A program made the translations under genes and the position numbers. Shown here piece after piece: positions 15,948 through 45,531 of a stretch of DNA of 64,000 nt. Positions within the stretch are counted from its first letter, which is position 1; each line of letters begins with the position of its first letter. Below the pieces are notes generated by a model. The model searched no databases. It was not told the origin of the DNA and worked only from the letters and a program-made list of their open reading frames with translations. The DNA lies in the NCBI GenBank assembly GCA_040882565.1, contig JBBEAZ010000024.1, positions 196,857-260,856 on the forward strand. Reading direction: 5' to 3'. Source of the DNA: Dehalococcoidia bacterium (GTDB taxonomy: Bacteria; Chloroflexota; Dehalococcoidia; SM23-28-2; RBG-16-64-32).

Positions 15948-16000
15948 CGCCCGGGGTGGTTCAGTCGTGTATCTTTGAATGCTGGAAGGAGGGTCCGCCG

Positions 16001-17733: not shown

Positions 17734-17791
17734 GGCGGCGGTGTAGCGAATGGGCGCGGCACGCGTCTTGTTTAGGGGCAACTACAGGACA

Positions 17792-18292: not shown

Positions 18293-18323
18293 GCTACGGC
18301 CGCCGCCCTCGCGAGTAGCCGGC

Positions 18324-18407: not shown

Positions 18408-18447
18408 CGGGTTTGTCGTGGATGGGGGTGGGGATAGAGGTGCGAGA

Positions 18448-18917
18448 ATGGCCGACATGAACCCAGCCACATGCGTTCGACTCGACTTCGAAGTCGATCC
18501 CGAGATGCTGGAAGAGAGCAGGGGGCTCCACCCGGCCGCGCGCGACTACGGAGACCTAATGCAAATCCTGTTCGCAATGCCGATCACCCTACAAGTGGAT
18601 GGCGTTGTGCTGCTAGAGCGTCTCCACCGGCCGATCGCGTACGTCGCGGCTGAAGGGGTTGAACAGCTGAAAGACTTCCGAGCTCCAAGCGCGTGTACAT
18701 GTTATTCCCACTTGGCCGGGGCTTGTCATTCGAACTTCGCCGGGACGACACTGTGAGCGTCAAAGCAATGTTTGACGGAGCGCAGGCACTGGCCAACGAT
18801 GGCGAATTGCTAGCGGCCTGGCTCGCCTTCGAACGAAAGGTTAAGGACTTCCTGCTGTCGGAAGTACCAGACTATCGTACGCATCCCAAGGTTGGCCCCT
18901 GGATCAATTCGCGGTGA
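18448..18917 (+). pseudogene. Hypothetical gene split by a frameshift
   Basis: Two overlapping ORFs (18418..18756 and 18693..18917) read as one protein if one frame change near 18680-18700 is allowed: ...AAEGVEQLKDFRAPS / RVYMLFPLGRGLSFELRRDDTVSVKAMFDG.... Lower-GC cassette between the two 84-bp repeats. Confidence 0.35.
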
Positions 18918-27862: not shown

Positions 27863-27957
27863 CATAGGTGACCTATGACGGGCGTTTGACGCGCGTTAAA
27901 CGGCGCTGCTAAGTTGCGGACGGCGCCCGGGCCCTGTATCCGTGATTGGAGTTCTGC

Positions 27958-29904
27958 ATGATCCGACTCATTATGGTTTCCGCCCTGGCTCTCGGTGTAT
28001 TCGGCGTCGCACTGATGTCATTCTCCGGCCGGTCGTCCGCGGGCGCGCCTTTCGTGGTCGATAGCACGGCTGACGCCGGCGCCGGTTCGCTGCGCCAGGC
28101 GATACTCGATGCGAACGCTGATCCGGGCTTCGACACGATTGCCTTCGATGCTTCCGTCTTTCCGCCGGCGCTACCGGCCGTCATTCTGCTGGCGAGCGAG
28201 CTGCCGGCGATGACGGACCCGGATGGCACGAGCGTGGATGGCACTGGCGCAGGGGTGATCATCGACGGAGTTGCTCTGGGAGCGGGGGATGCTGGGCTGC
28301 GCTTTCACTCGGGGGCGGGAAACCCTCTAAACAGCGCGATGGCCAAGAACCTAACGGTGAGGAACTTCCCGGGCCGGGGAATTTACATGTGCGGTGGAGA
28401 TGGCATCCTGGCCTGTATCAATCACGACAACTTCAACTCGCTGATTGACGGAGTCACACTCATCTCCAATGGGCACACTGGGGGATACATTACAGGCCGG
28501 ACGGTGACCAATGCAGTCATTACTAACACGGTCGCGACTAACAACGCTTTTCACGGCGTTGAGATCAACTCCTGCACCGGCGACATGATCGAGCCCATCG
28601 TGACAGACAACACCGCGATGGCTAACGAGCGCCACGGGATACAGGTGAATTCCTGCGACGTCCTAGTCGATGCCACTGTCACGGGCAACATCTCCCTTGA
28701 CAACGAGGACTTTGGGATCGAGGTGAACTCCGCGGATCAAATTATGAACCCAACTGTGTCAGACAACGTGGTGAGTGGTAATGACCAAGTGGGGATATAC
28801 GTTAACGCGAGTGACGACATCATTGGAGCGGACATCGCCCGCAACAAGGTCGAGTTGAACGGTGAAGAGGGTGTCTATCTCAATGCCGGCGGCGTTCTGG
28901 ACGACGCAGACGTCCACGCCAACCTGGTCCGCAACAACACAGGCGACGGTATCTACATCGATGGCGGCGCCCTATCACTTGCGCACGAACGAAGCATCAC
29001 AGGAAACATCATCTGTAAGAACGTGGCCAGCGGGCTGAATGTGGCCAACGCGATCCCGCAGAACGCGGAAGGCAACTGGTGGGGCCAGCCCAGCGGCCCG
29101 GCGCCGGGGGGGACGGGCGACGCTATCATCGGAGCGGGTGCGGGGGTTGCGGATGCTGTTCCATGGATCGACACGATGACGGCCAGCGCCGATCCTGCGA
29201 CCACAGGCATCTCCAGCGCGGTCCGCTTCCAGTTTTCGGACGCTGCCGCCACGGTCTTTCTAGGGCAAGGGCTTAGCATCGGTTATCCATTCGTGATCTC
29301 GACGGATATCGGCACGATCACTTCGTCGAGGGCGACCGGACCTATGGCGCCGGAAGCGATCAATGCCCCGGACGGGACGGTCGAAGTTCTGCTGACGCCA
29401 GATAGCGCCGGGCAAGCGACCGTGGAGATCGACGCGCCTTGCGGGCTAGCGCTACTACCGGGCAACCCGCTGGAGGTGGAAGTCGTGGATGCGACGCCAA
29501 CGCCTTCGCCGACGCCGACCCCTTTGCCGACCGCTAGCTCCTCACCTACATCCACACCTACTTCGACGGTTAGCCCCAATCCTTCGCCTTCAGCGACTGC
29601 GACGCCGGGCGGCGAGCAAGTCGTCTGGGGCGACAACAACTGCTCGGGCCCGCCACCGGATCCGGTCGACTCGCTGCTGACGCTGCGCTTCGACGCTGGG
29701 CTCAGCACGAACACCGGGGACTGCCCGGAGATGGGCGAGGTGGTGGAGGTGGCGAACGCCTCGCCGCACCCATGGGGCGATGTCGATTGTTCGGGCGAGG
29801 TGAACCCGGTGGATTCGCTGAAGCTGCTGCGGTTTGATGCGGGGTTGCCGGTGGGCCAGCCGGACGGGTGTCCGGACCCGGGCGAGATGGTGACGGTCAG
29901 CTAG
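27958..29904 (+). CDS. Secreted parallel beta-helix (NosD/PbH1-like) protein with PT linker and Cys-dockerin-like C-terminal module
   Basis: ATG 27958 after tggag. Signal peptide MIRLIMVSALALGVFGVALMSFSGRSSAG. GSLRQAILDAN. Stacked ~22-aa repeats (VTDNTAMANERHGIQVNS / VTGNISLDNEDFGIEVNS / VSDNVVSGNDQVGIYVNA / VRNNTGDGIYIDG). AEGNWWG. Linker [24 protein letters not shown]. Module 29626-29901: WGDNNCSGPPPDPVDSLLTLRFDAGLSTNTGDCPEMGEVVEVANASPHPWGDVDCSGEVNPVDSLKLLRFDAGLPVGQPDGCPDPGEMVTVS. Confidence 0.8.
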   Translation: MIRLIMVSALALGVFGVALMSFSGRSSAGAPFVVDSTADAGAGSLRQAILDANADPGFDTIAFDASVFPPALPAVILLASELPAMTDPDGTSVDGTGAGVIIDGVALGAGDAGLRFHSGAGNPLNSAMAKNLTVRNFPGRGIYMCGGDGILACINHDNFNSLIDGVTLISNGHTGGYITGRTVTNAVITNTVATNNAFHGVEINSCTGDMIEPIVTDNTAMANERHGIQVNSCDVLVDATVTGNISLDNEDFGIEVNSADQIMNPTVSDNVVSGNDQVGIYVNASDDIIGADIARNKVELNGEEGVYLNAGGVLDDADVHANLVRNNTGDGIYIDGGALSLAHERSITGNIICKNVASGLNVANAIPQNAEGNWWGQPSGPAPGGTGDAIIGAGAGVADAVPWIDTMTASADPATTGISSAVRFQFSDAAATVFLGQGLSIGYPFVISTDIGTITSSRATGPMAPEAINAPDGTVEVLLTPDSAGQATVEIDAPCGLALLPGNPLEVEVVDATPTPSPTPTPLPTASSSPTSTPTSTVSPNPSPSATATPGGEQVVWGDNNCSGPPPDPVDSLLTLRFDAGLSTNTGDCPEMGEVVEVANASPHPWGDVDCSGEVNPVDSLKLLRFDAGLPVGQPDGCPDPGEMVTVS

Positions 29905-29985
29905 CTGGGTCGGTGAGCGCCCGTCTGGACTGTTTAACCCGCCGTTGTTAAGCTTGCGTCACTCTAGCATCAACGGGGGTGTGTG

Positions 29986-31416
29986 ATGGTCCGAAAAATC
30001 CTTGTCCCTTCAATACTAGTCGGAGTACTAGCGATCCTTCTTGGTCTGGGAATGACCGGCCCGTCGGACGGTGGAGCGGCCTTCCCGGGTACGAATGGGA
30101 GGATCGCTTTTCGAGATACTGTATCCGGCGAAACAGACATCTATACTATGAACCCCGATGGTTCCGATGTTGATCAGCTGACGGACGCCGCAGGCCAAGA
30201 CTCGACCCCAGGCTGGTCGGCGGATGGGACCAAGATACTATTCTCCAGCCAACGTGATCCCGAGAGCCGGGAGATCTACGTCATGAATGCGGACGGCTCT
30301 AATCAGACGCGCATTACCACCAACAACGTCGACGACGCGAGACCTACTTTCTCGCCGGACGGAACAAAGATCGCGTTCGACACGGGTCGGCACGCCGTAG
30401 GGATGGATAACAATTACGAGATCTACGTGATGGATCTGGACGGCTCGAACGAGGAACGCTTGACCACCAACACCGTCCATGACCGTGACGCAGACTGGTC
30501 GCCGGATGGGACAAAGATCACCTGGGGGAGCGGTTCTGACGTCTGGGTTATGGACGCCGACGGAAGCAACCAGACGAACCTGACTCCGAGCGCCTTCGAA
30601 GGTGGGGATCCTGGTTGGTCGCCCGATGGCACGAAGATAGTTTTCACTGGTTTCGTACCCGACGAGCAAAACACAGATGTCTACGTGATGGACGCAAACG
30701 GCGCGAATATCACGAACCTGACTCAGACAGACAACACCGGCGAGAGAGACCCGAGGTTTTCGCCGGATGGAACGAAGATCGTGTTCCACCAGAACGGCAC
30801 CGGCGTCGTGGTGATGGATGCGAACGGCAGCAACCCTGTCACGATCAACACGAGCACGAACGCCATAATGCTCGATTGGGGGCCGGCGCCGAGTCCCACA
30901 CCCTCGCCAACGCCGACCCTGTCGCCGACGCCAGTCGGCCAGACGCCCAGCCCCAGCCCAACGCCGTCCCCGACGCCTTCGCCGACGCCGGTGGGGCAGA
31001 CGCCCTCGCCCTCACCTACGCCCTCTCCCACGCCCTCGCCCACGCCGGAGGGCCAGACTCCTGCACCCACGCCCACGCCCACGCCTTCGCCGACGCCGGA
31101 GCCCACGGACACGCCAGGCCCCGGCGAGCAACTCATCTGGGGCGACAACAACTGCTCTGGCCCGCCGCCAGACCCGGTCGACGCGCTGCTGGCGTTGCGC
31201 TTTGACGCGGGCCTGAGCACCAACACCGGCGACTGCCCGCCGATGGGCGAGGTGGTGGAGGTGACGAACGCGTCGCCGCATCCGTGGGGGGACGTCGACT
31301 GCTCGGGCGAGGTGAACCCGGTTGACTCGCTGAAGCTGCTGCGGTTCGACGCGGGGTTGAGCGTCTCACAGGGGGCGGGGTGTCCGGAGATCGGTGAGAC
31401 GGTGGTTATCGATTAA
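29986..31416 (+). CDS. Secreted PD40/TolB-type beta-propeller protein with PT linker and Cys-dockerin-like module
   Basis: Signal peptide MVRKILVPSILVGVLAILLGLG. Repeats such as WSADGTKILFSSQRD..EIYVMNADGSNQTRIT, FSPDGTKIAFDT, WSPDGTKITWGS, WSPDGTKIVFTG, FSPDGTKIVFHQ. Linker with a 17-aa repeat ([19 protein letters not shown]). Module 31138-31413. Confidence 0.8.
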   Translation: MVRKILVPSILVGVLAILLGLGMTGPSDGGAAFPGTNGRIAFRDTVSGETDIYTMNPDGSDVDQLTDAAGQDSTPGWSADGTKILFSSQRDPESREIYVMNADGSNQTRITTNNVDDARPTFSPDGTKIAFDTGRHAVGMDNNYEIYVMDLDGSNEERLTTNTVHDRDADWSPDGTKITWGSGSDVWVMDADGSNQTNLTPSAFEGGDPGWSPDGTKIVFTGFVPDEQNTDVYVMDANGANITNLTQTDNTGERDPRFSPDGTKIVFHQNGTGVVVMDANGSNPVTINTSTNAIMLDWGPAPSPTPSPTPTLSPTPVGQTPSPSPTPSPTPSPTPVGQTPSPSPTPSPTPSPTPEGQTPAPTPTPTPSPTPEPTDTPGPGEQLIWGDNNCSGPPPDPVDALLALRFDAGLSTNTGDCPPMGEVVEVTNASPHPWGDVDCSGEVNPVDSLKLLRFDAGLSVSQGAGCPEIGETVVID

Positions 31417-31506
31417 GCGCACGTCGTCGCAGACCACGGCTGCTGATGGCGTGGACGGCGGCGGCGGTCGCTGGTATGCTTGCGCCAGTCAACTCTGGGG
31501 GGAGCG

Positions 31507-32910
31507 ATGTCAGTCCTGATGAATGTGGTCCGCGCATGGCTGCTCGGCGTCGTCATCGTTGTTCTTCTACTCGCAGTCGCTGGATCCTCCACCGGCAGCG
31601 CAGCTTTTCCAGGATTCAACGGTCAACTGGCATGGCATTCGTATGGCTCGGGCGAGTCTTCCGATATCCACACCATGGACCCGGACGGCGGGAACCGCAC
31701 CAACCTTACGAATACCCCGAACGTTAGCGAAGATGATCCCGCTTGGTCGCCGGACGGGACGCAGATTGCGTACACGAGGGACGGTGACATCTGGATAATG
31801 GATGCGGATGGTGATAACGAGGCAAACCTGACGAATACGAGCACCATCATGGAATATGTGCCGGCGTGGTCTCCAGATGGCACGAAGATGCTCTTCGTCC
31901 ATCTCCCGGCAATGGGCGGCGGCAACTCAGAGATCTACGTTATGGACAGCGATGGGTCTGATCTAGTGAACCTGACCAACGCTTCCGACAGTAGCGAAGG
32001 GTACCCGGATTGGTCGCCCGATGGCACGAAGATCGCCTTCCAGAGCAACCGCGACGGCAGCGGTACCAATATCGAGATCTACGTAATGAACGCCAACGGC
32101 TCGAACCAGACCAACCTCAGCAACAACAGTGCCTGGGACCAGGTGCCTACGTGGTCACCCGACGGTTCGCACGTCGCCTTTTGGAGCGACCGGGACGGCG
32201 ACCTGGACATCTACATGATGGACGCCAACGGCATGAACCAGGTCAACCTCACGAACACCGCAGCGGACGACTACGACCCCGTATGGTCTCCGGACGGCAC
32301 AAAGATCGCCTACACCAAGTACGATGAGGCTAACGACGTCGAAGACATCTACGTAATGAACGCCAACGGATCCAGTCAGCCCAATATGACCAATGACGGT
32401 ATGGGCGGAAGGAACTTCGGCGTGGACTGGCAGCGGCTGTTGACCGCGCCCACTCCCACACCTTCGCCAACGCCAAGCCCAACGGCCACATCCGCGTCCA
32501 CGCCAACACCGACGCCAACGGCTACGCCCACGCCGACGGCGACGGATGAGCCAACCGACACGGCGACGCCGACGGCCACGCCAACACCAACACCGACTGA
32601 AACGCCGACGGGCCAGGAGGTGGCGTGGGGCGACAACAATTGCTCCGGCCCGCCTCCCGACCCGGTGGACTCGCTGCTGACGCTGCGCTTTGACGCGGGG
32701 CTTGGCACGAACACCGGCGACTGCCCGGAGATGGGCGAGGTCGTGGAGGTCGCGGCCGCGTCGCCGCACCCATGGGGCGACGTCGACTGCTCGGGCGAGG
32801 TGAACCCGGTGGACTCGCTGAAGCTGCTGCGTTTCGACGCGGGGCTGGATGTCGCGCAGGCGGACGGTTGTCCGGCGCTCGGTGACGCTGTCCTCGTCAA
32901 CGAGAGCTGA
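31507..32910 (+). CDS. Secreted PD40/TolB-type beta-propeller protein with PT linker and Cys-dockerin-like module
   Basis: ATG 31507 after ggggggag. Signal peptide MSVLMNVVRAWLLGVVIVVLLLAVAGSSTGSAA. Repeats WSPDGTQIAYTRDGDIWIMDADGDNEANLTN, WSPDGTKMLF, WSPDGTKIAFQSNRDG, WSPDGSHVAFWSDRDGDLDIYMMDANG, WSPDGTKIAYT. Module 32626-32907. Confidence 0.8.
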   Translation: MSVLMNVVRAWLLGVVIVVLLLAVAGSSTGSAAFPGFNGQLAWHSYGSGESSDIHTMDPDGGNRTNLTNTPNVSEDDPAWSPDGTQIAYTRDGDIWIMDADGDNEANLTNTSTIMEYVPAWSPDGTKMLFVHLPAMGGGNSEIYVMDSDGSDLVNLTNASDSSEGYPDWSPDGTKIAFQSNRDGSGTNIEIYVMNANGSNQTNLSNNSAWDQVPTWSPDGSHVAFWSDRDGDLDIYMMDANGMNQVNLTNTAADDYDPVWSPDGTKIAYTKYDEANDVEDIYVMNANGSSQPNMTNDGMGGRNFGVDWQRLLTAPTPTPSPTPSPTATSASTPTPTPTATPTPTATDEPTDTATPTATPTPTPTETPTGQEVAWGDNNCSGPPPDPVDSLLTLRFDAGLGTNTGDCPEMGEVVEVAAASPHPWGDVDCSGEVNPVDSLKLLRFDAGLDVAQADGCPALGDAVLVNES

Positions 32911-33057
32911 TGCTCACGCGCATCCAGCACGCAGGTATGCGCGCTTCTGTCTCAACGGCCTCAGATTTGGGACGCCAGTTCTCCGCTGCAGGGATGACAA
33001 GTTAGACACGCGTACAGGCCGCTGATATGCTTGCCGAAATCCTTTGGGAGGTGCTTG

Positions 33058-34446
33058 ATGTCGCACAGACTCGTCTTAGTTCTCGGCTCACTCGTTGCCC
33101 TGATCGTGCTCACACTGCTCTTGCTGAGCGCCGATAGCGGGCAGGCCGTCACCCCGGGTTTCAACGGTAGCATCGCGTTCGACTCGGACCGCGATGGCGG
33201 GGGCCACTTTGACATCTTCGTGATGAATCCGGACGGGAGCGACAAGACGAACGTCACGAACACGTCCAACGACGATGAGTACGGCCCCCGTTTTTCGCCG
33301 GATGGCACGCGCATCGTGTTCTATGGCAACCAGCACGTCTTTACGATCGACGCGGACGGCGCCAATCGCTCGGCGGCGCTGACCTCCGAGGGACAAAACC
33401 TGTTTCCGGGCTGGTCTCCGGACGGCACACAGATCGTGTACGCCAGCAGCGCCACCGGCGACCTAAACGTGTACGTGATGGACGCGAACGGTGCGAACAA
33501 GACCCCCCTCACAGCGGGTGACACCGACAGCGCTCCCGATTGGTCGCCGGACGGCAGCAAGATCGCCTTCACCAGCTCCCGCGACGGCAACAGGGAGATT
33601 TACGTGATGAACTCGGACGGCTCCAACGAGACGCGCATCACGAATGACACGGCGAAGGACAATGCGCCCAAGTGGTCACCAGACGGTTCCAAGATAGCGT
33701 TCTCCACGGACCGCGATAGCAATCCGGAGATATACCTCATGGACGCGGACGGCTCTAATCCAGTGAACCTGACGAACACAGCGACGTCGGAAGACCGGCC
33801 CACCTGGTCTCCGGACGCGACAAAGATCGCGTTCCAGCAGGCAGACGGAGACGACCAGAATGTTTTCGTAATGAATAGCGACGGCACCAACCCGGTCAGC
33901 CTGACGGAGCAGCCCGGCACGACCAACGAGAAGCCCGACTGGCAGCGGGTGGACAGCACACCCACACCCTCTCCCAGCCCAACCGGCTCGCCGACGCCGT
34001 CACCGACCGCCAGCGCAACCGAGACCGCGTCTGCCTCCGCCTCGGCCACCGCCACGCCCACGGATAGCGGAGAACAGACCGCGACGGCGACACCGACGGG
34101 GACAGCGATGCCAACGATTGGCCCCACCGCGCCGCCGACGAGCCCCGGTGGCGGCGACGAGCGCACCTGGGGCGACGACAACTGCTCCGGCGAGGCAGAC
34201 CCCGTTGACTCGCTGCTGACGCTGCGCTTCGACGCCGGCCTGGACGCCAACACCGGCGACTGCCCGCCGCTGGGGACGGAGGTGGATGTGCTCAACGCCT
34301 CGCTGCACCTCTGGGGCGACGTCGACTGCTCGAGCGAGGTGAACCCGGTGGATTCGTTGAAGCTGCTGCGGTTCGACGCGGGGTTGCCAGTGGATCAGCC
34401 AGATGGCTGCCCAGAGCTGGGCGCGACCGTCGCGGTCGTCAGTTAG
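33058..34446 (+). CDS. Secreted PD40/TolB-type beta-propeller protein with PT linker and Cys-dockerin-like module
   Basis: ATG 33058 after gggagg. Signal peptide MSHRLVLVLGSLVALIVLTLLLLSADSGQA. Repeats FSPDGTRIVF, WSPDGTQIVYAS, WSPDGSKIAFTSSRDGNREIYVMNSDGSNETRIT, WSPDGSKIAFSTDRDSNPEIYLMDADGSN, WSPDATKIAF. Module 34168-34443 (GEADPVDS variant of loop 1). Confidence 0.8.
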   Translation: MSHRLVLVLGSLVALIVLTLLLLSADSGQAVTPGFNGSIAFDSDRDGGGHFDIFVMNPDGSDKTNVTNTSNDDEYGPRFSPDGTRIVFYGNQHVFTIDADGANRSAALTSEGQNLFPGWSPDGTQIVYASSATGDLNVYVMDANGANKTPLTAGDTDSAPDWSPDGSKIAFTSSRDGNREIYVMNSDGSNETRITNDTAKDNAPKWSPDGSKIAFSTDRDSNPEIYLMDADGSNPVNLTNTATSEDRPTWSPDATKIAFQQADGDDQNVFVMNSDGTNPVSLTEQPGTTNEKPDWQRVDSTPTPSPSPTGSPTPSPTASATETASASASATATPTDSGEQTATATPTGTAMPTIGPTAPPTSPGGGDERTWGDDNCSGEADPVDSLLTLRFDAGLDANTGDCPPLGTEVDVLNASLHLWGDVDCSSEVNPVDSLKLLRFDAGLPVDQPDGCPELGATVAVVS

Positions 34447-34526
34447 CCGCGGCGGTGGACCTCTGCTGGACGATAGGTTCCGGCCGTTGGTATGCTCTAG
34501 GCCGATTGATCCCGGGGAGGCCGATC

Positions 34527-36383
34527 ATGCTGATTAAACGTATGCGTCTTGCACCTCTGTACTTCGCGGCGCTTGTCGCGCTGGCGGCGCTGCTCTGGCA
34601 GGTTAGCAATGGTGGCGCCGCGGCCGGCGACACGGAGCGGGTCAGTGTAGACAGCTTCGAGAACGAGGTGACCGGCGGCGACAACGAAGACGCGGCCATC
34701 AGCGCGGATGGGCGCTACGTGGCGTTTATGTCAGGCGCAGTTGACCTCGTACCGGATGACAACAACGGCATGCAGGATGCGTTTGTCCGGGACCGCCAGG
34801 CCGGAACCACGGAGCGGGTGAGCGTGGACAGTTCGGGTGTCGAAGGCGACCAGCACAGCGGCGCGGTGGGAATCAGCGGTGACGGCCGCTACGTGGTCTT
34901 CCAATCCAACGCCAACAACTTCGTGCCCGGCGATAACGACAACGACAGCGACATCTTCGTCCACGACCGGCAGACAGGTGACACGGAGATTGTGAGCGTA
35001 GACAGTTCCGGGAACCACGGCGACGCTTCCAGCTTTGGCCCAGCAGCGATCAGCGCGGACGGCCGCTACGTCGCCTTTTACTCCGGTGCCACCAATCTCG
35101 TGACCGGTGATATGAACGACGTGTATGACACGTTTGTCCACGACCGCCAGACCGGCGACACCGAGCGCGTGAGCGTCGACGGCTCCGGCGACGAGGGCGA
35201 TTTCAACACCTTCGGACCCACCATCAGCTCGGACGGCCGTTACGTCGGCTTCGATACGCGCTCCGTCCTGGTGCCGGACGACCTGAACGGAGAAGTAGAC
35301 GTGTACGTTCACGACCGCCAGACCGGCGACACCGAGCGGGTCAGCGTGGACAGCGCCGGCGAGGAAGGGAGCGACGCTAGTTTCTACGGTCATATCAGCG
35401 GCGACGGTCGCTACGTCGCGTTCGAGTCGCGGGCGATCGATCTGGTGCTGGGTGACACGAACGGGGACGTGGCTGACATCTACATTCACGACCGCCAGAC
35501 AGGTGAGACGGAGCGGGTGAGCGTGGACAGCGACGGGAACCAGGGAAGCGGCCAGAGCCTGAGAAGCGGCATTAGCGGGGACGGCAGGTATGTCACGTTC
35601 GGTAGCCACTCCGCTCTTGTGCCAGAGGATGGGAACGGTTTCTCCGACGTCTACATCCACGACCGCCAAACGGGCGTCACGGATTGGGTCAGTGACGATA
35701 TCTCAGGGAACCAGGGGGACGGCAACAGCTGGGGCAGCGAGAGTGACGCGACCATCAGCGAAGACGGCCGGTTCGTTGCGTTCACCTCAGACGCCACTGA
35801 CCTCGTTGCGCTGGATGACAACGAGATTCGCGACGCCTTCGTCCATGACCTCGGTCCGCCGGCAACGCCGACGCCGAGTCCATCGCCCTCGCCAACTTCG
35901 TCGCCGACCGCTACAGCGACACCCACGCCGACGCCAACGCTAACCTCGACGCCAACTCTTCCATGTCCCGGGGCGACGGCTCCTCCGGGCGGCACCTGCC
36001 CCCCTTGCCCAGGGTTCGAGCCTCAGGGCGAGGGCGTTCATGTCGAGTCGACCTGCCCGCCCACGCCTTCACCGTCACCGTCCGGGGCGCAGATCCCCTG
36101 GGGCGACAACAATTGTTCTGGCCCGCCGCCTGACCCGGTTGACTCGCTGCTCACGCTGCGCTTCGACGCCGGGCTCGGCACGAATACCGGCGACTGCCCG
36201 CCGCTGGGCGAGGTGGTCGAGGTGGCGAACGCGTCGCCGCACCCGTGGGGAGACGTCGACTGCTCGGGTGAGGTCAACCCGGTGGATTCGCTGAAGCTGC
36301 TGCGGTTCGATGCGGGGCTGCCGGTAGACCAGCCCCAGGGCTGCCCGCAGTTGGGTGCGACAGTACTGGTCGCTGAGGGCTGA
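34527..36383 (+). CDS. Secreted repeat (propeller-like) protein with PT linker and Cys-dockerin-like module
   Basis: ATG 34527 after ggggagg. Signal peptide MLIKRMRLAPLYFAALVALAALLWQVSNGGAAAG. About nine ~48-aa repeats TERVSVDSxGxEGxxxSxxxxISxDGRYVAFxSxAxNLVxxDxNxxxDxFVHDRQTG. Module 36099-36380. Confidence 0.75.
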   Translation: MLIKRMRLAPLYFAALVALAALLWQVSNGGAAAGDTERVSVDSFENEVTGGDNEDAAISADGRYVAFMSGAVDLVPDDNNGMQDAFVRDRQAGTTERVSVDSSGVEGDQHSGAVGISGDGRYVVFQSNANNFVPGDNDNDSDIFVHDRQTGDTEIVSVDSSGNHGDASSFGPAAISADGRYVAFYSGATNLVTGDMNDVYDTFVHDRQTGDTERVSVDGSGDEGDFNTFGPTISSDGRYVGFDTRSVLVPDDLNGEVDVYVHDRQTGDTERVSVDSAGEEGSDASFYGHISGDGRYVAFESRAIDLVLGDTNGDVADIYIHDRQTGETERVSVDSDGNQGSGQSLRSGISGDGRYVTFGSHSALVPEDGNGFSDVYIHDRQTGVTDWVSDDISGNQGDGNSWGSESDATISEDGRFVAFTSDATDLVALDDNEIRDAFVHDLGPPATPTPSPSPSPTSSPTATATPTPTPTLTSTPTLPCPGATAPPGGTCPPCPGFEPQGEGVHVESTCPPTPSPSPSGAQIPWGDNNCSGPPPDPVDSLLTLRFDAGLGTNTGDCPPLGEVVEVANASPHPWGDVDCSGEVNPVDSLKLLRFDAGLPVDQPQGCPQLGATVLVAEG

Positions 36384-36451
36384 CGCCAAGCGAACGTCAG
36401 CGTCTATACTCTGTCGCAACTACCGAGCGTCGCCTACTTCTGGAGAAGACC

Positions 36452-38462: not shown

Positions 38463-38482
38463 GGTCGTCCCGGCGCACCGTC

Positions 38483-40147
38483 GTGGGGGGTGTCGAGCTG
38501 AGGAGCGCAAACCCTGGTTTTGGTACCGGGCTCGTGCTGCAAAATGCCGATGGATCTACGATTCAGAACCTGGCAGTCAACCGATACTCGATGGGCATGC
38601 AGATTACCTCCGACGACGTTAGACTGCGCGGCAACTTCATCGGCACGGACGCGTCAGGGACCATCGGTATAGGCAACGACACGGGCATCCAAGTCGAAGG
38701 CGCTCGGACAATCATCGGTGGGACGGACGGCTGGACTCCGGGCGGAGTCTGCACCGGGGACTGCAATCTCATCTCCGGCCATTCGGACCACAACAATGAT
38801 TTCAGCATATTTGTCATCCCTGGCTCAGCAGACACAGTCATCCAGGGGAATATGTTTGGGGTTAATGCGGAAGGTACCTCGGCGTTACCGAATGGAACGA
38901 GTGTCATCGTTTCCGGGAGCAACGCGGTCATCGGTGGGGCCAGTCCAGTCGAAGGGAACCTCATCGCTGGCACAGTGCAGCGAGGAGTCAGGTTGGCCAG
39001 CGGAACGGCGACAATCCAGGGGAACCTGATCGGTACGAACAGTACTGGTACTGCCACGTTGACTGCGCCGAACCCACCGTTTCCACCGTTTGGAATAACC
39101 GTAGATAACGCTCAGAATGTGGTGATCGGTGGCGGAAGCCCCGGGGCCCGAAACGTTATCGCGGACATAAGGCCGGTTCGGGTTTACCAATCGTCGAACA
39201 CCCAGATTCGTGGGAATTTCATAGGGATCGCAACGGACGGTGTGACGCAACTAGGGTTACCGGCACCCGGTGATGCTGGGGTCTGGATTGAGGGCACGAT
39301 CGGCACTTTGGTCGGCGGAATCGAGCCGGGGCAGGGCAACACAATCGCCTATCGTGAAACTGGGGTAATGGTGTCCGGCAATAATGGAGTAACCCAGGGC
39401 AACCAGATCCGGGGAAACTCGATCCACTCGAATGTCGGTCCTGGCATCGACACCGCTGACGGGGGCAATGGTGAACCGCAGCCGCCGGTCGTCACCACCG
39501 CCAATCAGTCAGGGGCAAGCGGAACAGCCTCTGCCCTCTACTGCGCCAACTCAATGTGCGCCGTCGATATCTACTCGGACAACGAAGATGAGGGCCGCAG
39601 TTACGAAGGGTCTACGCAGACGGATCTCGCGGGGAACTGGACGTTCAGCGGATCGCTGAGCGGACCGAACGTGACGGCGACTATCACTAACGACGGCGGC
39701 AACACGTCAGAGTTCTCAGCGCCGTTCACCATCGATACCTCAACGCCTACGCCCAACCCGTCACCGACGCCGACGCCGACACCAACCTCGACCGCGACCG
39801 GCACTGCGAGCGCCACGGCCAGCCCAACGCCAACGCCGACCGGCGGTCCCCTGGACGATGAAGTGCCCTGGGGCGACGCCAACTGCTCCGGGGAGAGCGA
39901 CCCGGTCGACTCGCTGCTGACGCTGCGCTTCGACGCCGGCCTCAGCACAAACACGGGTGACTGCCCGCCGATGGGCGAGGTGGTCGAGGTCGCGAACGCG
40001 TCGCCGCACCCGTGGGGTGACGTCGACTGCTCGGGCGAGGTGAACCCGGTGGACTCGCTGAAGCTGCTGCGGTTTGATGCGGGGTTGCCGGTCGCACAGG
40101 AGCCGGATTGCCCACCGATCGGGGACACGGTTTCGGTCCTGTTCTAG
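38483..40147 (+). CDS. Beta-helix family member lacking signal peptide and N-terminal ~95 aa (5'-truncated paralog), with Cys-dockerin-like module
   Basis: It opens at GTG 38483 with GGVELRSANPGFGTGLVLQNADGSTIQNLAVNRY, which aligns to an internal position (GGATRVELRGPGGMGPETGLFVAA) of the upstream paralog. No hydrophobic N-terminus. Repeats GNFIGTDASGT / GNMFGVNAEGTSALPNG / GNLIGTNSTGT / GNQIRGNSIHSN. Module 39869-40144. Confidence 0.65.
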   Translation: MGGVELRSANPGFGTGLVLQNADGSTIQNLAVNRYSMGMQITSDDVRLRGNFIGTDASGTIGIGNDTGIQVEGARTIIGGTDGWTPGGVCTGDCNLISGHSDHNNDFSIFVIPGSADTVIQGNMFGVNAEGTSALPNGTSVIVSGSNAVIGGASPVEGNLIAGTVQRGVRLASGTATIQGNLIGTNSTGTATLTAPNPPFPPFGITVDNAQNVVIGGGSPGARNVIADIRPVRVYQSSNTQIRGNFIGIATDGVTQLGLPAPGDAGVWIEGTIGTLVGGIEPGQGNTIAYRETGVMVSGNNGVTQGNQIRGNSIHSNVGPGIDTADGGNGEPQPPVVTTANQSGASGTASALYCANSMCAVDIYSDNEDEGRSYEGSTQTDLAGNWTFSGSLSGPNVTATITNDGGNTSEFSAPFTIDTSTPTPNPSPTPTPTPTSTATGTASATASPTPTPTGGPLDDEVPWGDANCSGESDPVDSLLTLRFDAGLSTNTGDCPPMGEVVEVANASPHPWGDVDCSGEVNPVDSLKLLRFDAGLPVAQEPDCPPIGDTVSVLF

Positions 40148-40156
40148 AATAGCTTC

Positions 40157-41251
40157 GTGATCACGAGACGCACCGCGGTCTTGTTCCCGACACTGGTCGT
40201 CGTCGCCGTTCTCGGCGTTCTCATCTTCACAGCCACGCGCGCACCGGGCCCGCAGCGGGCCGAAGCCGACCATCACCTGTTGCGTGTCGACCGGGTGATG
40301 GCGGACGGCGATATCCAGTACGTACAGTTGCGCATGACGACCGGCGGGCAGGGAGTCGTGGACGGCAAGCAGATCTGTTTCTACGACGCCACCGGCACCC
40401 CCGCCGGCAGCTTCACCTTCCCCGAAGACCTCGATGTAGCCACGGACGAAGCGACTGTGCTCATCGGCACAGCGGAGTTCGACGCCGCCTGGACTGGGGG
40501 AGATTCAGATTACCAGCTCACCGGACACCCTGTGCCGCACCCCGCCGGCAAGGTGACGTTCGGCGCAACTTGCGCGGCCGCGCCGGTCGACTCTGTGGCC
40601 TACGGCGCCGGCTACAGCGGTCCGGTCGAGAACCCCGCCAAGTTCCCGCAAGACCTTCCCGTTGACGGCCAGGCGTTGCGGCTTGATGCAGACGCGCCGA
40701 ACGCGCCGCGCGTCAATGCCGACGACTACGCTATCGGGGCCGCCGACTTCAAGAAGAACAACGGCACAACCGGATCGCTGAACGAGACAAGCACCCCGAC
40801 CGCCTCACCGAGCCCTACGGCGACGCCGACTGCCACGCCAACGCTGACGCCGTGTCCGACTGTCAGCCCCACAAACTGCGACATAGTCACGAACCCCCCG
40901 AGCCCAACGCCGACGCCGACAGCGACGCCAACGTTCACCGGCACTCTGCCGCCCGGCGACGAGCGCACGTGGGGTGACAACAACTGCTCCGGCCCACCGC
41001 CCGACCCGGTCGACTCCCTCCTCACCCTCCGCTTCGACGCTGGCCTCCCCACCAACACGGGCGATTGCCCGCCGGTGGGCGAAGTCGTCGAGGTCGCGAA
41101 CGCGTCCCCGCACCCGTGGGGCGATGTCGACTGTTCGGGCGAGGTCAATCCGGTCGACTCGCTTAAGTTGCTGCGCTCCGACGCCGGCCTCCCGGTCAAC
41201 CAGCCTCAGGACTGCCCGGAACTCGGCGGCGCTGTTATCGTCACGGCCTAG
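40157..41251 (+). CDS. Membrane-anchored (or signal-peptide) lamin-tail-domain-like protein with PT linker and Cys-dockerin-like module
   Basis: N-terminus MITRRTAVLFPTLVVVAVLGVLIFTATRAPGPQRAEA. Then HHLLRVDRVMADGDIQYVQLRMTTGG..VDGKQICFYDATGTPAGSFTFPEDLDVATDEATVLIGTAEF, which resembles the LTD pattern (I.EV...eyVEL.N...l.G..l.d..g...f.fp....l..g..vli). Module 40970-41248. TAGAAT box 6 nt upstream of the GTG and no SD. Confidence 0.65.
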   Translation: MITRRTAVLFPTLVVVAVLGVLIFTATRAPGPQRAEADHHLLRVDRVMADGDIQYVQLRMTTGGQGVVDGKQICFYDATGTPAGSFTFPEDLDVATDEATVLIGTAEFDAAWTGGDSDYQLTGHPVPHPAGKVTFGATCAAAPVDSVAYGAGYSGPVENPAKFPQDLPVDGQALRLDADAPNAPRVNADDYAIGAADFKKNNGTTGSLNETSTPTASPSPTATPTATPTLTPCPTVSPTNCDIVTNPPSPTPTPTATPTFTGTLPPGDERTWGDNNCSGPPPDPVDSLLTLRFDAGLPTNTGDCPPVGEVVEVANASPHPWGDVDCSGEVNPVDSLKLLRSDAGLPVNQPQDCPELGGAVIVTA

Positions 41252-41316
41252 ATTGGTGCGAAATGCTGTAACGCCAGGCTAAATCTGGCCATCTTACATA
41301 TCTGGGAATATCAGAA

Positions 41317-42525
41317 ATGCCCAGATTCTCGCTTGTCCTTACCGTTGCTATAGCGGCTACACTCGGCGCTCTCCTCTTCGCTGGTGCGCGCTCGCCCGGC
41401 CCGCAGCCGGCTGAGGCAAACCACCACTACATGCGCATAGACCGCGTCATGTCCAACGGCAACGTTCAGTACGTCATGTTGCGCATGCGGCAAGTCGGTA
41501 TGAACCTCGTGGACGGCAGTGTCCTCTGCTTCTACAACGCTGCGGGCCAGGCAGCCGGCAGCTTCACCTTCCCCGCCGACGTCGCCAACAACGCCACCCA
41601 GGCCACGATCCTCATCGGAACCGCGGCGTTCGACGCAGCGTGGACGGGCGGCGCGCCGGACTTCACGTTCAGCGGCAACCCGGTTCCGACCAGCGGCAAA
41701 ATCACGTACCGCGATGCTTGTGATTTCGGTCCAATCTGGGACCAGGTGGCTTACGGTTCCACGTACACCGGCTCAAACGGGTACGGCGAACCGTTCCCAC
41801 AGAACCTGCCGCAGGACTACCAGGCGCTGCGACTGGTCGTGGGCCTGAACAACCCTGTGGACGAACGCAACAACGAGACCGACTATGCCCTCGGCACCGC
41901 CGACTTCAAGAAGAACAACGGCACGACCGGCTCCCTGCCCAGCACCGCCACCCCTTCTCCCACTCCAGTCCCCACGCCCACGCCGACAGCAACACCCATA
42001 CCGACAGCAACATCAATCCCGACCAACACGCCGGTCGCGACTACGGCCGGCCCGACCGCCTCGGGCTCGACCCAGACGGCGGCTCCGACACCCACCGCCA
42101 CCCCGACCGCTACGGCGAGCGCCACGCCCCCGCCAACACAACCGGGCCATACCCCGACGCCAACGGCGGCTCCGACGGCCGCCGCTACGCCCACCGCCAC
42201 TGCCACGGCGCCACCCACCAGTTCGGGGGACGAGCATACCTGGGGCGACGGCAACTGCTCCGGCCCACCGCCCGACCCTGTCGACTCGCTGATCACCCTC
42301 CGCCATGATGCCGGCCTCAGCACCAGCACGGGCGACTGCCCACCGATCGGTGGCACGATTGAATTGCAGGGCGGCTCGCCTCACCCCTGGGGCGACATCG
42401 ACTGCTCCGGTGGGGTGGACCCCGTCGACTCGCTCAAGCTCCTCCGCTTCGACGCCGGTTTGACCGTCGCATACGGACCGAACTGCCCTGGGCTGGGCGA
42501 CGCTGTCGTCGTCTCTATGCCCTGA
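41317..42525 (+). CDS. Paralog of the preceding LTD-like anchored protein, longer linker, diverged Cys-dockerin-like module
   Basis: MPRFSLVLTVAIAATLGALLFAGARSPGPQPAEANHHYMRIDRVMSNGNVQYVMLRM...LCFYNAAGQAAGSFTFPADVANNATQATILIGTAAF...DYALGTADFKKNNGTTGSL is collinear with gene 40157-41251. About 95-aa PT/A linker. Module 42241-42522 (WGDGNCSGPPPDPVDSLITLRHDAGLSTSTGDCPPIGGTIELQGGSPHPWGDIDCSGGVDPVDSLKLLRFDAGLTVAYGPNCPGLGDAVVV). Confidence 0.7.
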   Translation: MPRFSLVLTVAIAATLGALLFAGARSPGPQPAEANHHYMRIDRVMSNGNVQYVMLRMRQVGMNLVDGSVLCFYNAAGQAAGSFTFPADVANNATQATILIGTAAFDAAWTGGAPDFTFSGNPVPTSGKITYRDACDFGPIWDQVAYGSTYTGSNGYGEPFPQNLPQDYQALRLVVGLNNPVDERNNETDYALGTADFKKNNGTTGSLPSTATPSPTPVPTPTPTATPIPTATSIPTNTPVATTAGPTASGSTQTAAPTPTATPTATASATPPPTQPGHTPTPTAAPTAAATPTATATAPPTSSGDEHTWGDGNCSGPPPDPVDSLITLRHDAGLSTSTGDCPPIGGTIELQGGSPHPWGDIDCSGGVDPVDSLKLLRFDAGLTVAYGPNCPGLGDAVVVSMP

Positions 42526-42589
42526 CACACCGCTTCGGCCCCACTCTCAATTGACCCCTGACGCACGCCCGTGCGATCTTGATGCCGCC

Positions 42590-43738
42590 ATGCAACCCGA
42601 GCGCGACCCCTCGGAAAAGCTCCTCTTCACGCCGGGGCCGCTGACCACCAGCGCCACCGTCAAGCAAGCGATGATGCGGGATGCCGGGTCATGGCACTGG
42701 GAGTTCAACGAGATGGTCGCGCGCGTGCGCCAGAAGCTCCTCGCCGTCGCTGGCGTGAGCCGCGACGACGGTTACGAATGCATCCTCCTGCAGGGCAGCG
42801 GCACGTACGGACTCGAGGCGGTCGTTGGCTCGGGCGTCCCGCGGGGCGCCAAGTTCCTTGTCGCGATCAACGGCGCGTACGGCGAGCGCATCGCACGTAT
42901 CGCTGAAGTCCTCGGCGTCGAGACCGTCGCCCTCCGCTATCGCGAGCATGAGTTGCCCAGCGCGGGCGAAGTCCGCTCGGCGCTTGCCGATGACCCGGCG
43001 ATCGCGATGGTCTGCGCCGTCCACTGCGAGACCACGACCGGCATCCTCAACCCCATCGCCGAGATCGGCCGCGCCGTCAAGGAGGCGGGGCGCCTCTACT
43101 TCGTCGACGCGATGAGCAGCTTCGGCGCGATCGACATCGACGTCCGCGGCATCGGCATCGACTACCTGGTGTCCTCCGCCAACAAGTGCATCGAAGGCGT
43201 GCCCGGTTTCTCCTTCGTCATCGCCCGGCGCCAGGCCCTGATCGACGCCGAGACCGGCGCCCGCAGCCTGAGCCTCGATCTACTCGCCCAGCTCCGCGGC
43301 TTTGAGAAGGGCGGCCAGTTCCGCTTCACGCCGCCGACTCACACGATCCTGGCCTTCGACCAGGCTCTGCGCGAACTCGAAGACGAAGGCGGCGTCGCTG
43401 GACGCGGCGACCGCTACCGCGCCAACCACGAAACGCTAATCGCCGGTATGCGCGACCTCGGCTTCCGCCAGCACCTCGCGCCCGACAGGCAGAGCTTCAT
43501 CATCACGTCCTTCCACTACCCCGCGCACCCAGCCTTCGACTTCGACACTTTCTATCGCGCGCTCGCGGAGCGCGGCTTCATCATCTACCCCGGCAAGCTC
43601 AGCGCGATCGACTGCTTCCGCATCGGCAGCATCGGCCGCCTCTTCCCCGAGGACTTCCGGAACCTCCTCGCCGCCATCGCCGCGACTCTTAAAGAGGTGG
43701 GCGTGCCGGTGCCTGTGCCCGAGGCCGCCTCGCCGTGA
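42590..43738 (+). CDS. phnW: 2-aminoethylphosphonate--pyruvate transaminase
   Basis: ATG 42590. LLFTPGPLTTSATVKQAMMRDAGSWHWEFNEMV...ILLQGSGTYGLEAV...SSANKCIEGVPGFSFVIARR is the PhnW pattern. Followed by phnX with a GTGA overlap. Confidence 0.85.
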   Translation: MQPERDPSEKLLFTPGPLTTSATVKQAMMRDAGSWHWEFNEMVARVRQKLLAVAGVSRDDGYECILLQGSGTYGLEAVVGSGVPRGAKFLVAINGAYGERIARIAEVLGVETVALRYREHELPSAGEVRSALADDPAIAMVCAVHCETTTGILNPIAEIGRAVKEAGRLYFVDAMSSFGAIDIDVRGIGIDYLVSSANKCIEGVPGFSFVIARRQALIDAETGARSLSLDLLAQLRGFEKGGQFRFTPPTHTILAFDQALRELEDEGGVAGRGDRYRANHETLIAGMRDLGFRQHLAPDRQSFIITSFHYPAHPAFDFDTFYRALAERGFIIYPGKLSAIDCFRIGSIGRLFPEDFRNLLAAIAATLKEVGVPVPVPEAASP

Positions 43739-44562
43739 CTTACCGCGGCCCTCTCCGTGCCGTGATCCTCGACTGGGCCGGCACGATTGTCGACTTCGGC
43801 TCGTGTGCGCCCGTCCAGGCCTTCGTCGAAACGTTCCGCCGCGCCGGTGTGAAGATCAGCACCGCCGAAGCCCGCGGGCCGATGGGCAGCGCTAAGCGCG
43901 ATCACATCGCCGCGCTGCTTGCGATGCCCGAGGTCGCGGCGCGCTGGCAGTCCGCCAACGGCGCCGCGCCCGGCGATGCCGAGGTCGACCGCCTGTACGC
44001 AGACTTCATCCCGATCCAGCTCGAAGTCCTGACCCGTTCTGTCGACATCATCCCCGGCGCCCCGGAAGCGATCTCAGCGCTCCGCGAGCGCGGTCTGAAG
44101 ATCGGCAGCACCACCGGCTACAACCGCGTGATGATGGACGCCGTCGTCCCAGCCGCGACGAAGCAAGGCCTCGTCGTGGATCACGTCGCCACCGCTGACA
44201 CGCTCCCCTCCGGCCGGCCCGCGCCCTGGATGTGCTTCGAGAACATGGCTGCCCTCGGCGTCTACCCGCCGGCCGCCTGCGTGAAGATCGGCGACACCGT
44301 CCCGGATATAGATGAGGGCCTCAATGCCGGAATGTGGACCATCGCCGTCGCCGCCACCGGCAACGAATTCGGCCTCTCGGAAGCGGAGGCCGCGGCGCTG
44401 CCGGAAGCGGAGCGCCGCGCACGGATCGCCACGGCGACGGAGCGACTGCAGGCAGCCGGTGCGCACTATGTGGTAGATGGCATCCGTGACGCGCCCGCGG
44501 TGCTCGACCAGATCGCGCTGCGCCTTGCCAACGACGATCACCGCTCGTCACGTCGCGCATAG
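43735..44562 (+). CDS. phnX: Phosphonoacetaldehyde hydrolase (phosphonatase)
   Basis: HAD motif I in the PhnX form, AVILDWAGTIVDFGSCAPV, plus ARGPMGSAKRDHI and GDTVPDIDEGLNAGMW. Confidence 0.85.
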   Translation: MTYRGPLRAVILDWAGTIVDFGSCAPVQAFVETFRRAGVKISTAEARGPMGSAKRDHIAALLAMPEVAARWQSANGAAPGDAEVDRLYADFIPIQLEVLTRSVDIIPGAPEAISALRERGLKIGSTTGYNRVMMDAVVPAATKQGLVVDHVATADTLPSGRPAPWMCFENMAALGVYPPAACVKIGDTVPDIDEGLNAGMWTIAVAATGNEFGLSEAEAAALPEAERRARIATATERLQAAGAHYVVDGIRDAPAVLDQIALRLANDDHRSSRRA

Positions 44563-44646
44563 CTCCAAAACCTCAAAGACGCGGAAATTACCTCAGTGGA
44601 TTGAAACTGCTCCGCACGAGTTCTCGCAGGGCGTACACTGACAGCC

Positions 44647-45531
44647 ATGCGAGTTGTGTTTGCCATGTTCGCGCTGATCACCGGTGTTGTGGCTGCCGTC
44701 ACCGCTGCTCCAGATGGTGCAACTTCGAGCGTGGCTACCGATACCCCGATCGTGTTATCGCTAGGGCTGTATGGACCTTCCGTTGTGGAGCAAGGAGAAA
44801 CCGTCGTAATAATTCTGCGCGCTGATATCCAGGAACCCGGAATTGGGGACGTCGCACTGAACGTCACCTACACTGAGGGGGCCGGTGCGAATTACTGCAC
44901 GGGACCGTGGGGAATGTGCGAAATAGATATCGTGGAGAGAACGGTCCACTTCACTGGTTCGAGCCACGCGGGAATCGTCGGTGTGGGTGTGATGCTGGGG
45001 ACCTTAGGACTTGATGCTGGTCAACAACCTGGCGCAATTCAGATCGCCATTGATCCTCTGTCGATTGAGCTAGAGGACACGCAGGGGGCTCTCGTTCAGC
45101 CGGAGCTGGTGGTTTCGCCCCTTTCGATCACAATCGTGAGTCCAACTCCAACTCCTTCGCCCACTCCTACACCCGTGCCGGCGACTCCGGGCCCAACGGG
45201 ACCGACGCCCACCCCCGGCCCCGGAACACTGGTGTTATGGGGAGACAACAACTGTTCTAGTTCCGTGGACCCGGTGGACTCGCTGCTGACGTTGCGAGCT
45301 GACGCGGGCATGGCGGGAGATACAGGGAACTGTCCGGATGTGGGCAAGTTCGTCCTCGTTGGTAGTCATGGCCCAGACGGTCCCTGGGGTGACGTTGACT
45401 GCTCCGGGAATGTTGACCCCGTTGATTCACTCAGGACGTTGCGCTATGACGTGGGCCTCGGATTGGAAACGCCTGCGTTTTGCCCGGCGATCGGCCAGCA
45501 AGTCAGATTCATCGTTCCGAACTTCAAGTAA
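44647..45531 (+). CDS. Secreted cohesin-like domain + PT linker + Cys-dockerin-like module protein (candidate scaffold/adaptor)
   Basis: Signal peptide MRVVFAMFALITGVVAAVTAAP. About 130-aa beta-rich domain IVLSLGLYGPSVVEQGETVVIILRADIQEPGIGDVALNVTYTEGAG...VHFTGSSHAGIVGVGVMLGTLGLDAGQQPGAIQIAIDPLSIELEDTQGALVQPELVVSPLSITIV, which follows the cohesin pattern (v.v...v..G.tv.v.v.l....i.....l.y......i.f.g....G..g.g.l..l......g...i.i....l.d..g......g.i.i). Diverged module 45238-45528. Lower GC than its neighbours. Confidence 0.5.
   Translation: MRVVFAMFALITGVVAAVTAAPDGATSSVATDTPIVLSLGLYGPSVVEQGETVVIILRADIQEPGIGDVALNVTYTEGAGANYCTGPWGMCEIDIVERTVHFTGSSHAGIVGVGVMLGTLGLDAGQQPGAIQIAIDPLSIELEDTQGALVQPELVVSPLSITIVSPTPTPSPTPTPVPATPGPTGPTPTPGPGTLVLWGDNNCSSSVDPVDSLLTLRADAGMAGDTGNCPDVGKFVLVGSHGPDGPWGDVDCSGNVDPVDSLRTLRYDVGLGLETPAFCPAIGQQVRFIVPNFK

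Follow-up and report, generated by a model that had tools for sequence, protein, structure and literature searches.

A Cys-containing dockerin module terminates an array of ten proteins, the probable cargo of a non-cellulolytic cohesin–dockerin system in a Dehalococcoidia bacterium

Within a 64,000-nucleotide stretch of DNA from an uncultured member of the Dehalococcoidia class of Chloroflexota (the whole stretch is referred to here as the window), ten consecutive plus-strand open reading frames (ORFs) at 27946–45531 all end in a common double-repeat module of ~95 amino acids. A previous sequence-only reading of this DNA had described them as ten genes broken only by phnWX and had proposed that the module is dockerin-like; the observation held, the sole interruption being phnW and phnX (42551–44562), both of which were confirmed by NCBIfam equivalog models. 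The array genes are laid out as a hydrophobic N terminus, a variable domain, a Pro/Thr/Ser linker and the C-terminal module. This common secreted architecture, proposed for the whole array, was recovered for most genes, the exceptions being gene 6, which is frameshifted, and gene 7, which has no signal peptide. A hidden Markov model (HMM) derived from the copies identified 11 strong modules across the window, of which ten belong to the array and the eleventh to a gene at 59311–61293 (domain E values 1.6e-54 to 2.4e-44), as well as three weak, compact relatives at 13032–15059, 52978–54357 (N-terminal) and 63102–63992 (minus strand). The total of 14 module-bearing genes agreed with the earlier count, as judged by a motif scan and the HMM.

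Gene 1 (27946–29904) encodes a predicted signal peptide, a NosD-type beta-helix (PF05048, 36.2 bits), a Pro/Thr (PT) linker and a module at 29620–29901 (domain E 8.3e-54). Genes 2–5 all matched PD40, in line with the four propeller genes first proposed. Gene 2 (29983–31416) joins a signal peptide to a PD40/TolB-type propeller (E 7e-31), a PT linker and a module at 31132–31410 (E 6.1e-54). Genes 3 (31480–32910) and 4 (33031–34446) likewise carry a signal peptide, a PD40 propeller (E 1.5e-39 and 2e-36, respectively) and a linker, followed by modules at 32620–32904 (E 3e-54) and 34162–34440 (E 1.4e-49), the latter with a canonical 12-residue first loop, GDDNCSGEADPVD. In gene 5 (34455–36383), the signal peptide precedes a repetitive propeller-like domain with a weak PD40 match (E 4e-11), a linker and a module at 36093–36374 (E 1.6e-54).

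NosD beta-helices had been assigned to three genes, which stood for gene 1 and, weakly, for gene 6 (NosD 20.8 bits, below the cut-off), whereas gene 7 gave no Pfam family. Gene 6 (36452–38459) contains at least three frameshifts: one is at a C8 run (~36519) just past the signal peptide, another lies near 37350, and a further one comes from a GGGC duplication of 4 nt in the WGD of the module. Its signal peptide starts at 36452, the body is read in different frames at 36489–37454 and 37451–38338, and the module (38181–38456, E 5.8e-53) lies in a third frame; the gene is a probable pseudogene or contains local sequence errors. Gene 7 (38483–40147) is a beta-helix paralogue of gene 6 with a linker and a module at 39863–40138 (E 3.7e-52). 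It has no hydrophobic N terminus, and its alignment to gene 6 begins at about residue 95, the preceding stretch of gene 6 being absent; it looks like a 5′-truncated copy whose product may not be exported.

Gene 8 (40157–41251) has an N-terminal anchor or signal peptide, a ~175-amino acid domain without an assigned family, a linker and a module at 40964–41245, and gene 9 (41317–42525) is its paralogue, with a long PT linker and a module at 42235–42519. The lamin-tail-like identity (PF00932) suggested for the domains of these two genes found no support: neither gave a Pfam family at E ≤ 10, and a profile search of the PDB returned chance matches only. Gene 10 (44647–45531) closes the array with a signal peptide, a cohesin at 44725–45141, a PT linker and the most divergent module of the set at 45232–45513 (E 2.4e-44).

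The module proved to be an internal duplication in which the motif WGDxxC...PVDSL...LRxDAGL...CP, four Cys residues and terminal hydrophobic strands were present in the copies, all as originally described. Over 724 repeats the consensus is PWGDVDCSGEVDPVDSLKTLRFDAGLSVNQGxGCPDMGAEVTV, with the Cys at loop position 4 kept in 680 of 683 non-gap residues and the second Cys in 719 of 721. Loop positions 1, 3, 5, 9 and 12 were occupied by D, D/N, S/G/D, D/N/T and D, respectively. The proposed fit to a 12-residue calcium loop with oxygen donors at these five positions and a helix directly afterward was therefore borne out, the helices being placed after the loops in the structural model described below. 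The one-residue PPP insertion reported for the first loop was present in seven of the 11 strong window copies (13 residues); the other four have the canonical 12-residue loop. Single-repeat and four-repeat versions of the module also exist in the family. The single-repeat units retain the same Cys pair, which argues for one disulfide within each repeat; this would join the Cys at loop position 4 to the Cys ~27 residues later. In two relatives (P0137 and P0212), four matched stretches within ~220–250 amino acids were seen, i.e. tandem double modules. These resemble the double dockerin of Clostridium thermocellum Clo1313_0689 (8x39), which was also among the structural matches.

At the DNA level, the window copies are 52–83% identical, and the longest exact run common to any two is 53 nt. 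For the modules of genes 1–8, identity was 0.87 at codon positions 1 and 2 against 0.62 at position 3, with a mean amino acid identity of 81%, a pattern that points to copies of some age, kept under purifying selection. The DNA divergence and this codon-position pattern together led us to reject both assembly collapse and recent gene conversion as origins of the repeats. A different picture was seen at one related locus (L030, 2643–5690), where two adjacent genes with unrelated cargo have near-identical modules and linker ends (…EGQQVAWGDNNCSGAADPVDALLTLRNDAGL…), pointing either to gene conversion at this locus or to a recent duplication of the module in that genome, unlike the diverged copies of the window.

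For assignment of the module to a fold, a combination of structure prediction, structural matching and profile comparison was used. An AlphaFold2 model built from a 25-sequence alignment (pLDDT 96.4, pTM 0.86) placed a helix immediately behind each loop (residues 18–28 and 66–76), with short strands at 2–5, 44–47, 53–54 and 93–96. When this model was compared with the PDB using Foldseek, the best 32 of 35 matches were all dockerin chains from cohesin–dockerin complexes, led by 4uyq_B (probability 0.99, root mean square deviation (rmsd) 1.9 Å over 75 columns, TM-score 0.72 on the target). The dockerin matches had TM-scores of 0.64–0.80 on targets of ~60–73 residues and ~0.5 on the 97-residue query (rmsd ~2–3 Å), as would be given by a dockerin core plus ~25 extra residues. 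The structure-database check thus found the dockerin fold and contradicted a beta-sandwich. In a PDB profile search with the module, the six best matches were all dockerins, and a single-sequence search gave a weak dockerin match only (E 0.28). Finally, the calcium loop and helix were aligned by hhalign to four classical dockerins, two of them entered by hand, with a probability of 88.3% and an E value of 2.9e-6.

Transitive links within the family led to the same assignment. One homologue (P0102), found at E 1.8e-20 with 52% identity to the module, passes PF00404 with 30.0 bits against a gathering threshold of 22.9 bits, and a 255-amino acid relative of the cohesin-plus-module adaptor (P0261) has a classical Asp-rich dockerin, set between two Cys residues, where its close relatives have the module. 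Three further relatives of the adaptor (P0262–P0264) have a single aberrant repeat at this position, so that one chassis is seen with exchanged dockerin types. On these four independent lines (fold, PDB profile, hhalign and transitive links), the module is a dockerin, despite failing PF00404. It constitutes a distinct, unclassified Cys-bearing subfamily; our literature searches returned no description of this subfamily, or of dockerins or such a system in Dehalococcoidia, and nothing of relevance on a GC-type dockerin or on sponge symbionts. Those homologues whose records name a source, Dehalococcoidia or Chloroflexi metagenome-assembled genomes (MAGs), are entered there as "hypothetical protein".

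The N-terminal domain of gene 10 (residues 27–165), which had been called cohesin-like, gave no Pfam match at E ≤ 10 (the gathering threshold of PF00963 is 24.1 bits), and a single-sequence, word-index homology search with it returned no homologues. An iterative jackhmmer search of the fetched loci did find relatives, through which the domain could be connected to an ORF in locus L002 (E 8e-13), from there to an ORF in L047 (E 3e-12) and finally to PF00963, which the last matched over the whole profile with 35.7 bits. A profile of the family matched 6kgc_A in the PDB end to end (E 0.006). The AlphaFold2 model of the domain (pLDDT 86.4) is all beta, and 24 of its 25 best Foldseek matches were cohesins, with E values of 1e-7 to 1e-5 and TM-scores of 0.6–0.76 (0.70–0.76 for the top matches). 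These included the non-cellulosomal cohesins 2xdh (Archaeoglobus fulgidus) and 2jh2 (Clostridium perfringens), both at E ~1e-6, as well as 2zf9. The domain is accordingly a cohesin by fold and by its sequence chain to PF00963-positive relatives. It is the only cohesin in the window, and it is attached to the module copy with the lowest DNA identity to the others (52–62%), as expected if that dockerin is aimed at a different cohesin. A wider search with the cohesin profile found 13 proteins, three with precomputed PF00963 matches (P0265, P0268 and P0269), a number that is an undercount, the search having been limited by its word index.

The distribution of the module was then examined. Its pattern occurred in six of 185,579 species-representative genomes, at 48 loci, all of these genomes being Chloroflexota/Dehalococcoidia MAGs. 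These loci hold 104 module-bearing ORF pieces, commonly in same-strand arrays of three to six genes, and at least 40 module ORFs were among the loci fetched from one 2.5-Mb genome. In an exhaustive profile search the number of clusters was 3,604 at E ≤ 1e-3, falling to 1,389 at E ≤ 1e-10 and to 179 at E ≤ 1e-30. One locus (L004), from a soil Dehalococcoidia MAG of another species, is syntenic with the window: sufC and sufB (91% identical) lie beside an array of only five genes, which include orthologues of genes 1 (73% identical), 3 (96%) and 9 (61%). The place taken by gene 10 in the window is occupied in this locus, upstream of nifS, by a module protein with unrelated cargo.

Three MAGs share a conserved four-gene cassette with at least six metagenome contigs that are independent of one another, the contigs having been scanned with a narrow cohesin alignment. 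It consists of a protein of 1,086–1,587 amino acids ending in a two-repeat module, a cohesin whose C-terminal part comprises [LV]PxTGG, a hydrophobic helix and ARAGREN, a second cohesin ending in a module, and a third cohesin followed by a PT linker, a C-terminal transmembrane helix and RRRG (L053, 3171–9440; L060, 3650–10540; L002, 1303–7220; L042, 4067–11210). The large first proteins matched no Pfam families. The sortase-like motif, transmembrane helix and ARAGREN tail of the second are conserved in at least ten loci, and a search of the loci for sortase (TLxTC) gave no credible candidate. Judging from these gene neighborhoods, the cassette appears to couple this dockerin type to anchored cohesins and provides new support for a cohesin–dockerin system.

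The cargo of the module was surveyed in the window and among 102 family members. None of the 14 window proteins has a glycoside hydrolase domain, and the relatives carry mainly Beta_helix (18), NosD (12), PD40 (8) and DPPIV_N (5) domains, with two subtilases, two reprolysin-like proteases, two cohesins and a single GH5 among the rarer types. The statement that the cargo is not cellulolytic was therefore upheld. Neither a multi-cohesin scaffoldin nor a carbohydrate-binding module was found among the window and 60 loci, in which every cohesin protein has one cohesin. With no glycoside hydrolase cargo, scaffoldin of this kind or carbohydrate-binding module, the system is not a cellulosome.

Outside the array, the eleventh full module (61006–61287, E 2.9e-47) ends a plus-strand beta-helix protein at 59311–61293 (Beta_helix PF13229), which has a 72% identical orthologue in L030. 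Among the compact relatives, the plus-strand gene at 13032–15059 encodes a Beta-helix/PMP-repeat protein with a Cys-containing dockerin-like C terminus at ~14823–15050. That at 52978–54357, also on the plus strand, has its dockerin-like module (~53071–53307) directly after the signal peptide, ahead of a PT linker and a 318-amino acid domain that matched no Pfam family. On the minus strand, 63102–63992 is the C-terminal part of a zinc metalloprotease whose ORF runs off the window; a full-length orthologue containing HENGHFLGLGH is present in L004 at about 14900–16957 (minus strand). Its compact Cys-dockerin of ~70 amino acids (~63117–63368) reaches 21.8 bits with PF00404 against the cut-off of 22.9. 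The genome thus has a second dockerin subtype, a hint that its cohesins may differ in specificity.

The two genes that interrupt the array, phnW (42551–43738; TIGR02326, 479.9 bits) and phnX (43735–44562; TIGR01422, 349.1 bits), are both on the plus strand and above the cut-offs of their models; they belong to 2-aminoethylphosphonate catabolism and are not part of the system. In the fetched loci there was no match to phnX, and only weak phnW-like matches (~30% identity) were seen, none of them in the syntenic L004, so that phnWX looks inserted here or lost in the relative. The window is otherwise an ordinary chromosome, with cox/xdh-like genes, a suf operon, nuoB, queA, a two-component system and proS. 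GC content falls to 0.58–0.62 at ~8000–12000 and 16000–18800, where several ORFs have a third-position GC of 0.59–0.66 and one (9369–10766) has a DNA methylase domain; these stretches are possibly horizontally acquired.

Taken as a whole, the array is probably cargo for a non-cellulolytic cohesin–dockerin system for surface display, and the cohesin–dockerin interpretation put forward by the sequence-only reading is supported. In such a system, each protein would be exported via an N-terminal Sec-type signal, as suggested by the hydrophobic N termini, and the flexible Pro/Thr/Ser linker would part a functional domain (beta-helix, PD40 propeller, ~175-amino acid domain or cohesin) from the C-terminal dockerin. 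The dockerin would comprise two F-hand repeats, each made up of WGD, a calcium loop (ligand positions 1, 3, 5, 9 and 12) and the helix PVDSLxxLRxDAGL. Each repeat would be extended by ~12 residues that supply the second Cys (xCP) and a short beta-strand, with one disulfide per repeat and with the strands forming a small sheet that may clasp the N terminus, middle and C terminus. The two near-identical helices would bind the cohesin, and their near identity makes a dual binding mode possible. Gene 10, with its cohesin and divergent dockerin, could act as an adaptor; in the relatives, single cohesins carrying either [LV]PxTGG, a transmembrane helix and a basic tail or a C-terminal transmembrane helix would hold the complex on the cell.

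Several observations weigh against this interpretation. Scans with Pfam Dockerin_1 and the NCBIfam models, which included the check that the sequence-only reading had proposed, gave no match to the module or to the array proteins even at E ≤ 1. The Foldseek E value of 0.14 and the PDB profile E value of 0.048 are each non-significant alone, values that we ascribe to the shortness of the domain. With Ser or Gly predominating at loop position 5 and an extra residue (PPP) in seven of 11 first loops, calcium binding at site 1 is uncertain. As to anchoring, P0265 has a canonical LPDTGG, yet it scores 13.7 bits with TIGR01167 against a cut-off of 15.9, and the VPxTGG and PPATGG cohesins gave no TIGR01167 match. 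In the window itself no anchored cohesin and no sortase was found, the cassette being seen in relatives only. Finally, two of the ten array genes, genes 6 and 7, may be non-functional.

A dockerin fold need not imply a cohesin role, and the module could be a domain stabilized by calcium and disulfides that fastens secreted proteins to some other part of the envelope (S-layer, glycan or lipid), or that self-associates, with the cohesins serving a small subset of its bearers. We regard this as unlikely, although several observations favor it: the 3,604 module clusters far outnumber the 13 cohesins found, the 40 or more module ORFs of one 2.5-Mb genome and the lone cohesin of the window point the same way, and the helix surface, nearly invariant across the 724 repeats, would suit one non-protein ligand equally well as a conserved cohesin. 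For many dockerin-like domains outside cellulosomes, moreover, no partner is known. The numerical argument is, however, weakened by the undercounting of cohesins and by the high dockerin-to-cohesin ratios that are usual in cellulosome producers, and an independent role fits poorly with a cassette in which this dockerin type directly adjoins three genes for cohesins, one of them also encoding the module, or with a cohesin-plus-module protein at the end of the window's own array.

The mostly C-terminal position of the module, after a low-complexity linker and on many unrelated secreted proteins, would also be that of a sorting or secretion tag recognized and removed by the export machinery, of the type IX secretion system C-terminal domain (T9SS CTD) or PEP-CTERM type. 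This is very improbable, given that the fold is a two-helix F-hand dockerin rather than a beta-sandwich CTD, that N-terminal or internal placements occur (52978–54357 in the window; L012, L017, L008, P0172 and P0197 elsewhere) and that the number of repeats varies from one to four; no cognate machinery was seen in any locus, and the only match of a window protein to the sorting domain TIGR04183 was a chance one inside a propeller. Least credible of all is that the array is an assembly artefact or a set of decaying, recently duplicated paralogues without current function. The frameshifts of gene 6, the truncation of gene 7 and the probable origin of the sequence from a MAG would be in keeping with this, but the copies are too diverged in DNA, have no long common run and differ mainly at third codon positions, orthologues stand in the same place beside sufBC in another species and the family has thousands of members.

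The nearest well characterized counterparts of the module are the type I cellulosomal dockerins (PF00404; C. thermocellum Xyn10B and Cel48S; Ruminococcus flavefaciens group 1, 5m2s_B and 4uyq_B), with which it has in common the duplicated F-hand, two-fold internal symmetry, fold and C-terminal position after a PT linker. The W-G-D start also recurs in R. flavefaciens dockerins (WGDANCDG and WGDVNCDG). In ScaADoc, the Trp at position −1 forms a stabilizing clasp with the C terminus (PMC3821032); the module has a Trp at the same position, and its predicted strands may do the same job. Unlike these dockerins, each module repeat is lengthened by an xCP...G..V.V stretch that contributes a beta-strand as well as a second invariant Cys, giving four invariant Cys residues and a length of ~95 rather than about 60–70 amino acids, the ~25-residue excess noted previously. 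Further differences are Ser or Gly at loop position 5, an often 13-residue first loop, an invariant Pro-Val at positions 10–11 in place of the variable Ser/Thr recognition pair and an invariant LRxDAGL following the helix. The module is missed by PF00404, and its cargo are not glycoside hydrolases.

Use of cohesins and dockerins outside cellulose degradation is likewise found in A. fulgidus (2xdh), C. perfringens (2jh2, 2vo8 and 2w1n) and the amylosome of Ruminococcus bromii (PMC4611034), and the existence of non-cellulosomal modules in principle is given by the survey of Peer et al. (2009), as cited in PMC2930009. Single-cohesin and cohesin-plus-dockerin proteins are common to those systems and to ours. 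The present system differs in its dockerin, a separate Cys-bearing subfamily, in its expansion, with 14 genes in this 64-kb window and tens of them in a 2.5-Mb genome, in its cargo of mostly beta-helix and propeller proteins without assigned activity and in its Dehalococcoidia host. With regard to anchoring, the cassette of the relatives recalls the sortase-anchored single cohesin ScaE of R. flavefaciens (2zf9) in having a single cohesin with an LPXTG-like motif, a transmembrane helix and a basic tail, and it follows the same adaptor scaffoldin logic in having a cohesin-plus-dockerin protein. The motif of the relatives is, in contrast, mostly VPxTGG and below the TIGR01167 cut-off, no sortase was seen in the loci, a second, transmembrane-anchored cohesin is present, and no multi-cohesin scaffoldin or carbohydrate-binding module was found.

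A bolder possibility, which we advance tentatively and consider less probable than its negation, is that a hierarchical cohesin–dockerin network is the main furnishing of the cell surface in this uncultured Dehalococcoidia lineage and is built on an unclassified dockerin class locked by disulfides and a beta-sheet. In such a network, single cohesins anchored through a sortase-like signal or a transmembrane helix would hold cohesin-plus-dockerin adaptors, which in turn would hold tens of cargo proteins per 2.5-Mb genome. If so, the cellulosome principle would be employed here on a large scale, comparable to that of cellulosomes and amylosomes, for a purpose other than degradation, and the two-disulfide and sheet lock could lower calcium dependence or give redox sensitivity.

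Cohesin–dockerin pairs are best known from the digestion of plant fiber and are widely used as a molecular glue in synthetic biology. Should the two disulfides and the strand clasp stabilize the fold, the module may be of use in protein engineering as a docking part with greater robustness or a redox switch. A subfamily missed by Pfam and NCBIfam, yet represented by 3,604 clusters in public data, implies that such systems are under-counted outside Firmicutes, and a dedicated profile model would improve the annotation of thousands of proteins. For the Chloroflexota, whose envelope biology is largely uncharted, the array provides a testable hypothesis for how beta-helix, propeller and protease modules may be attached to the cell surface.

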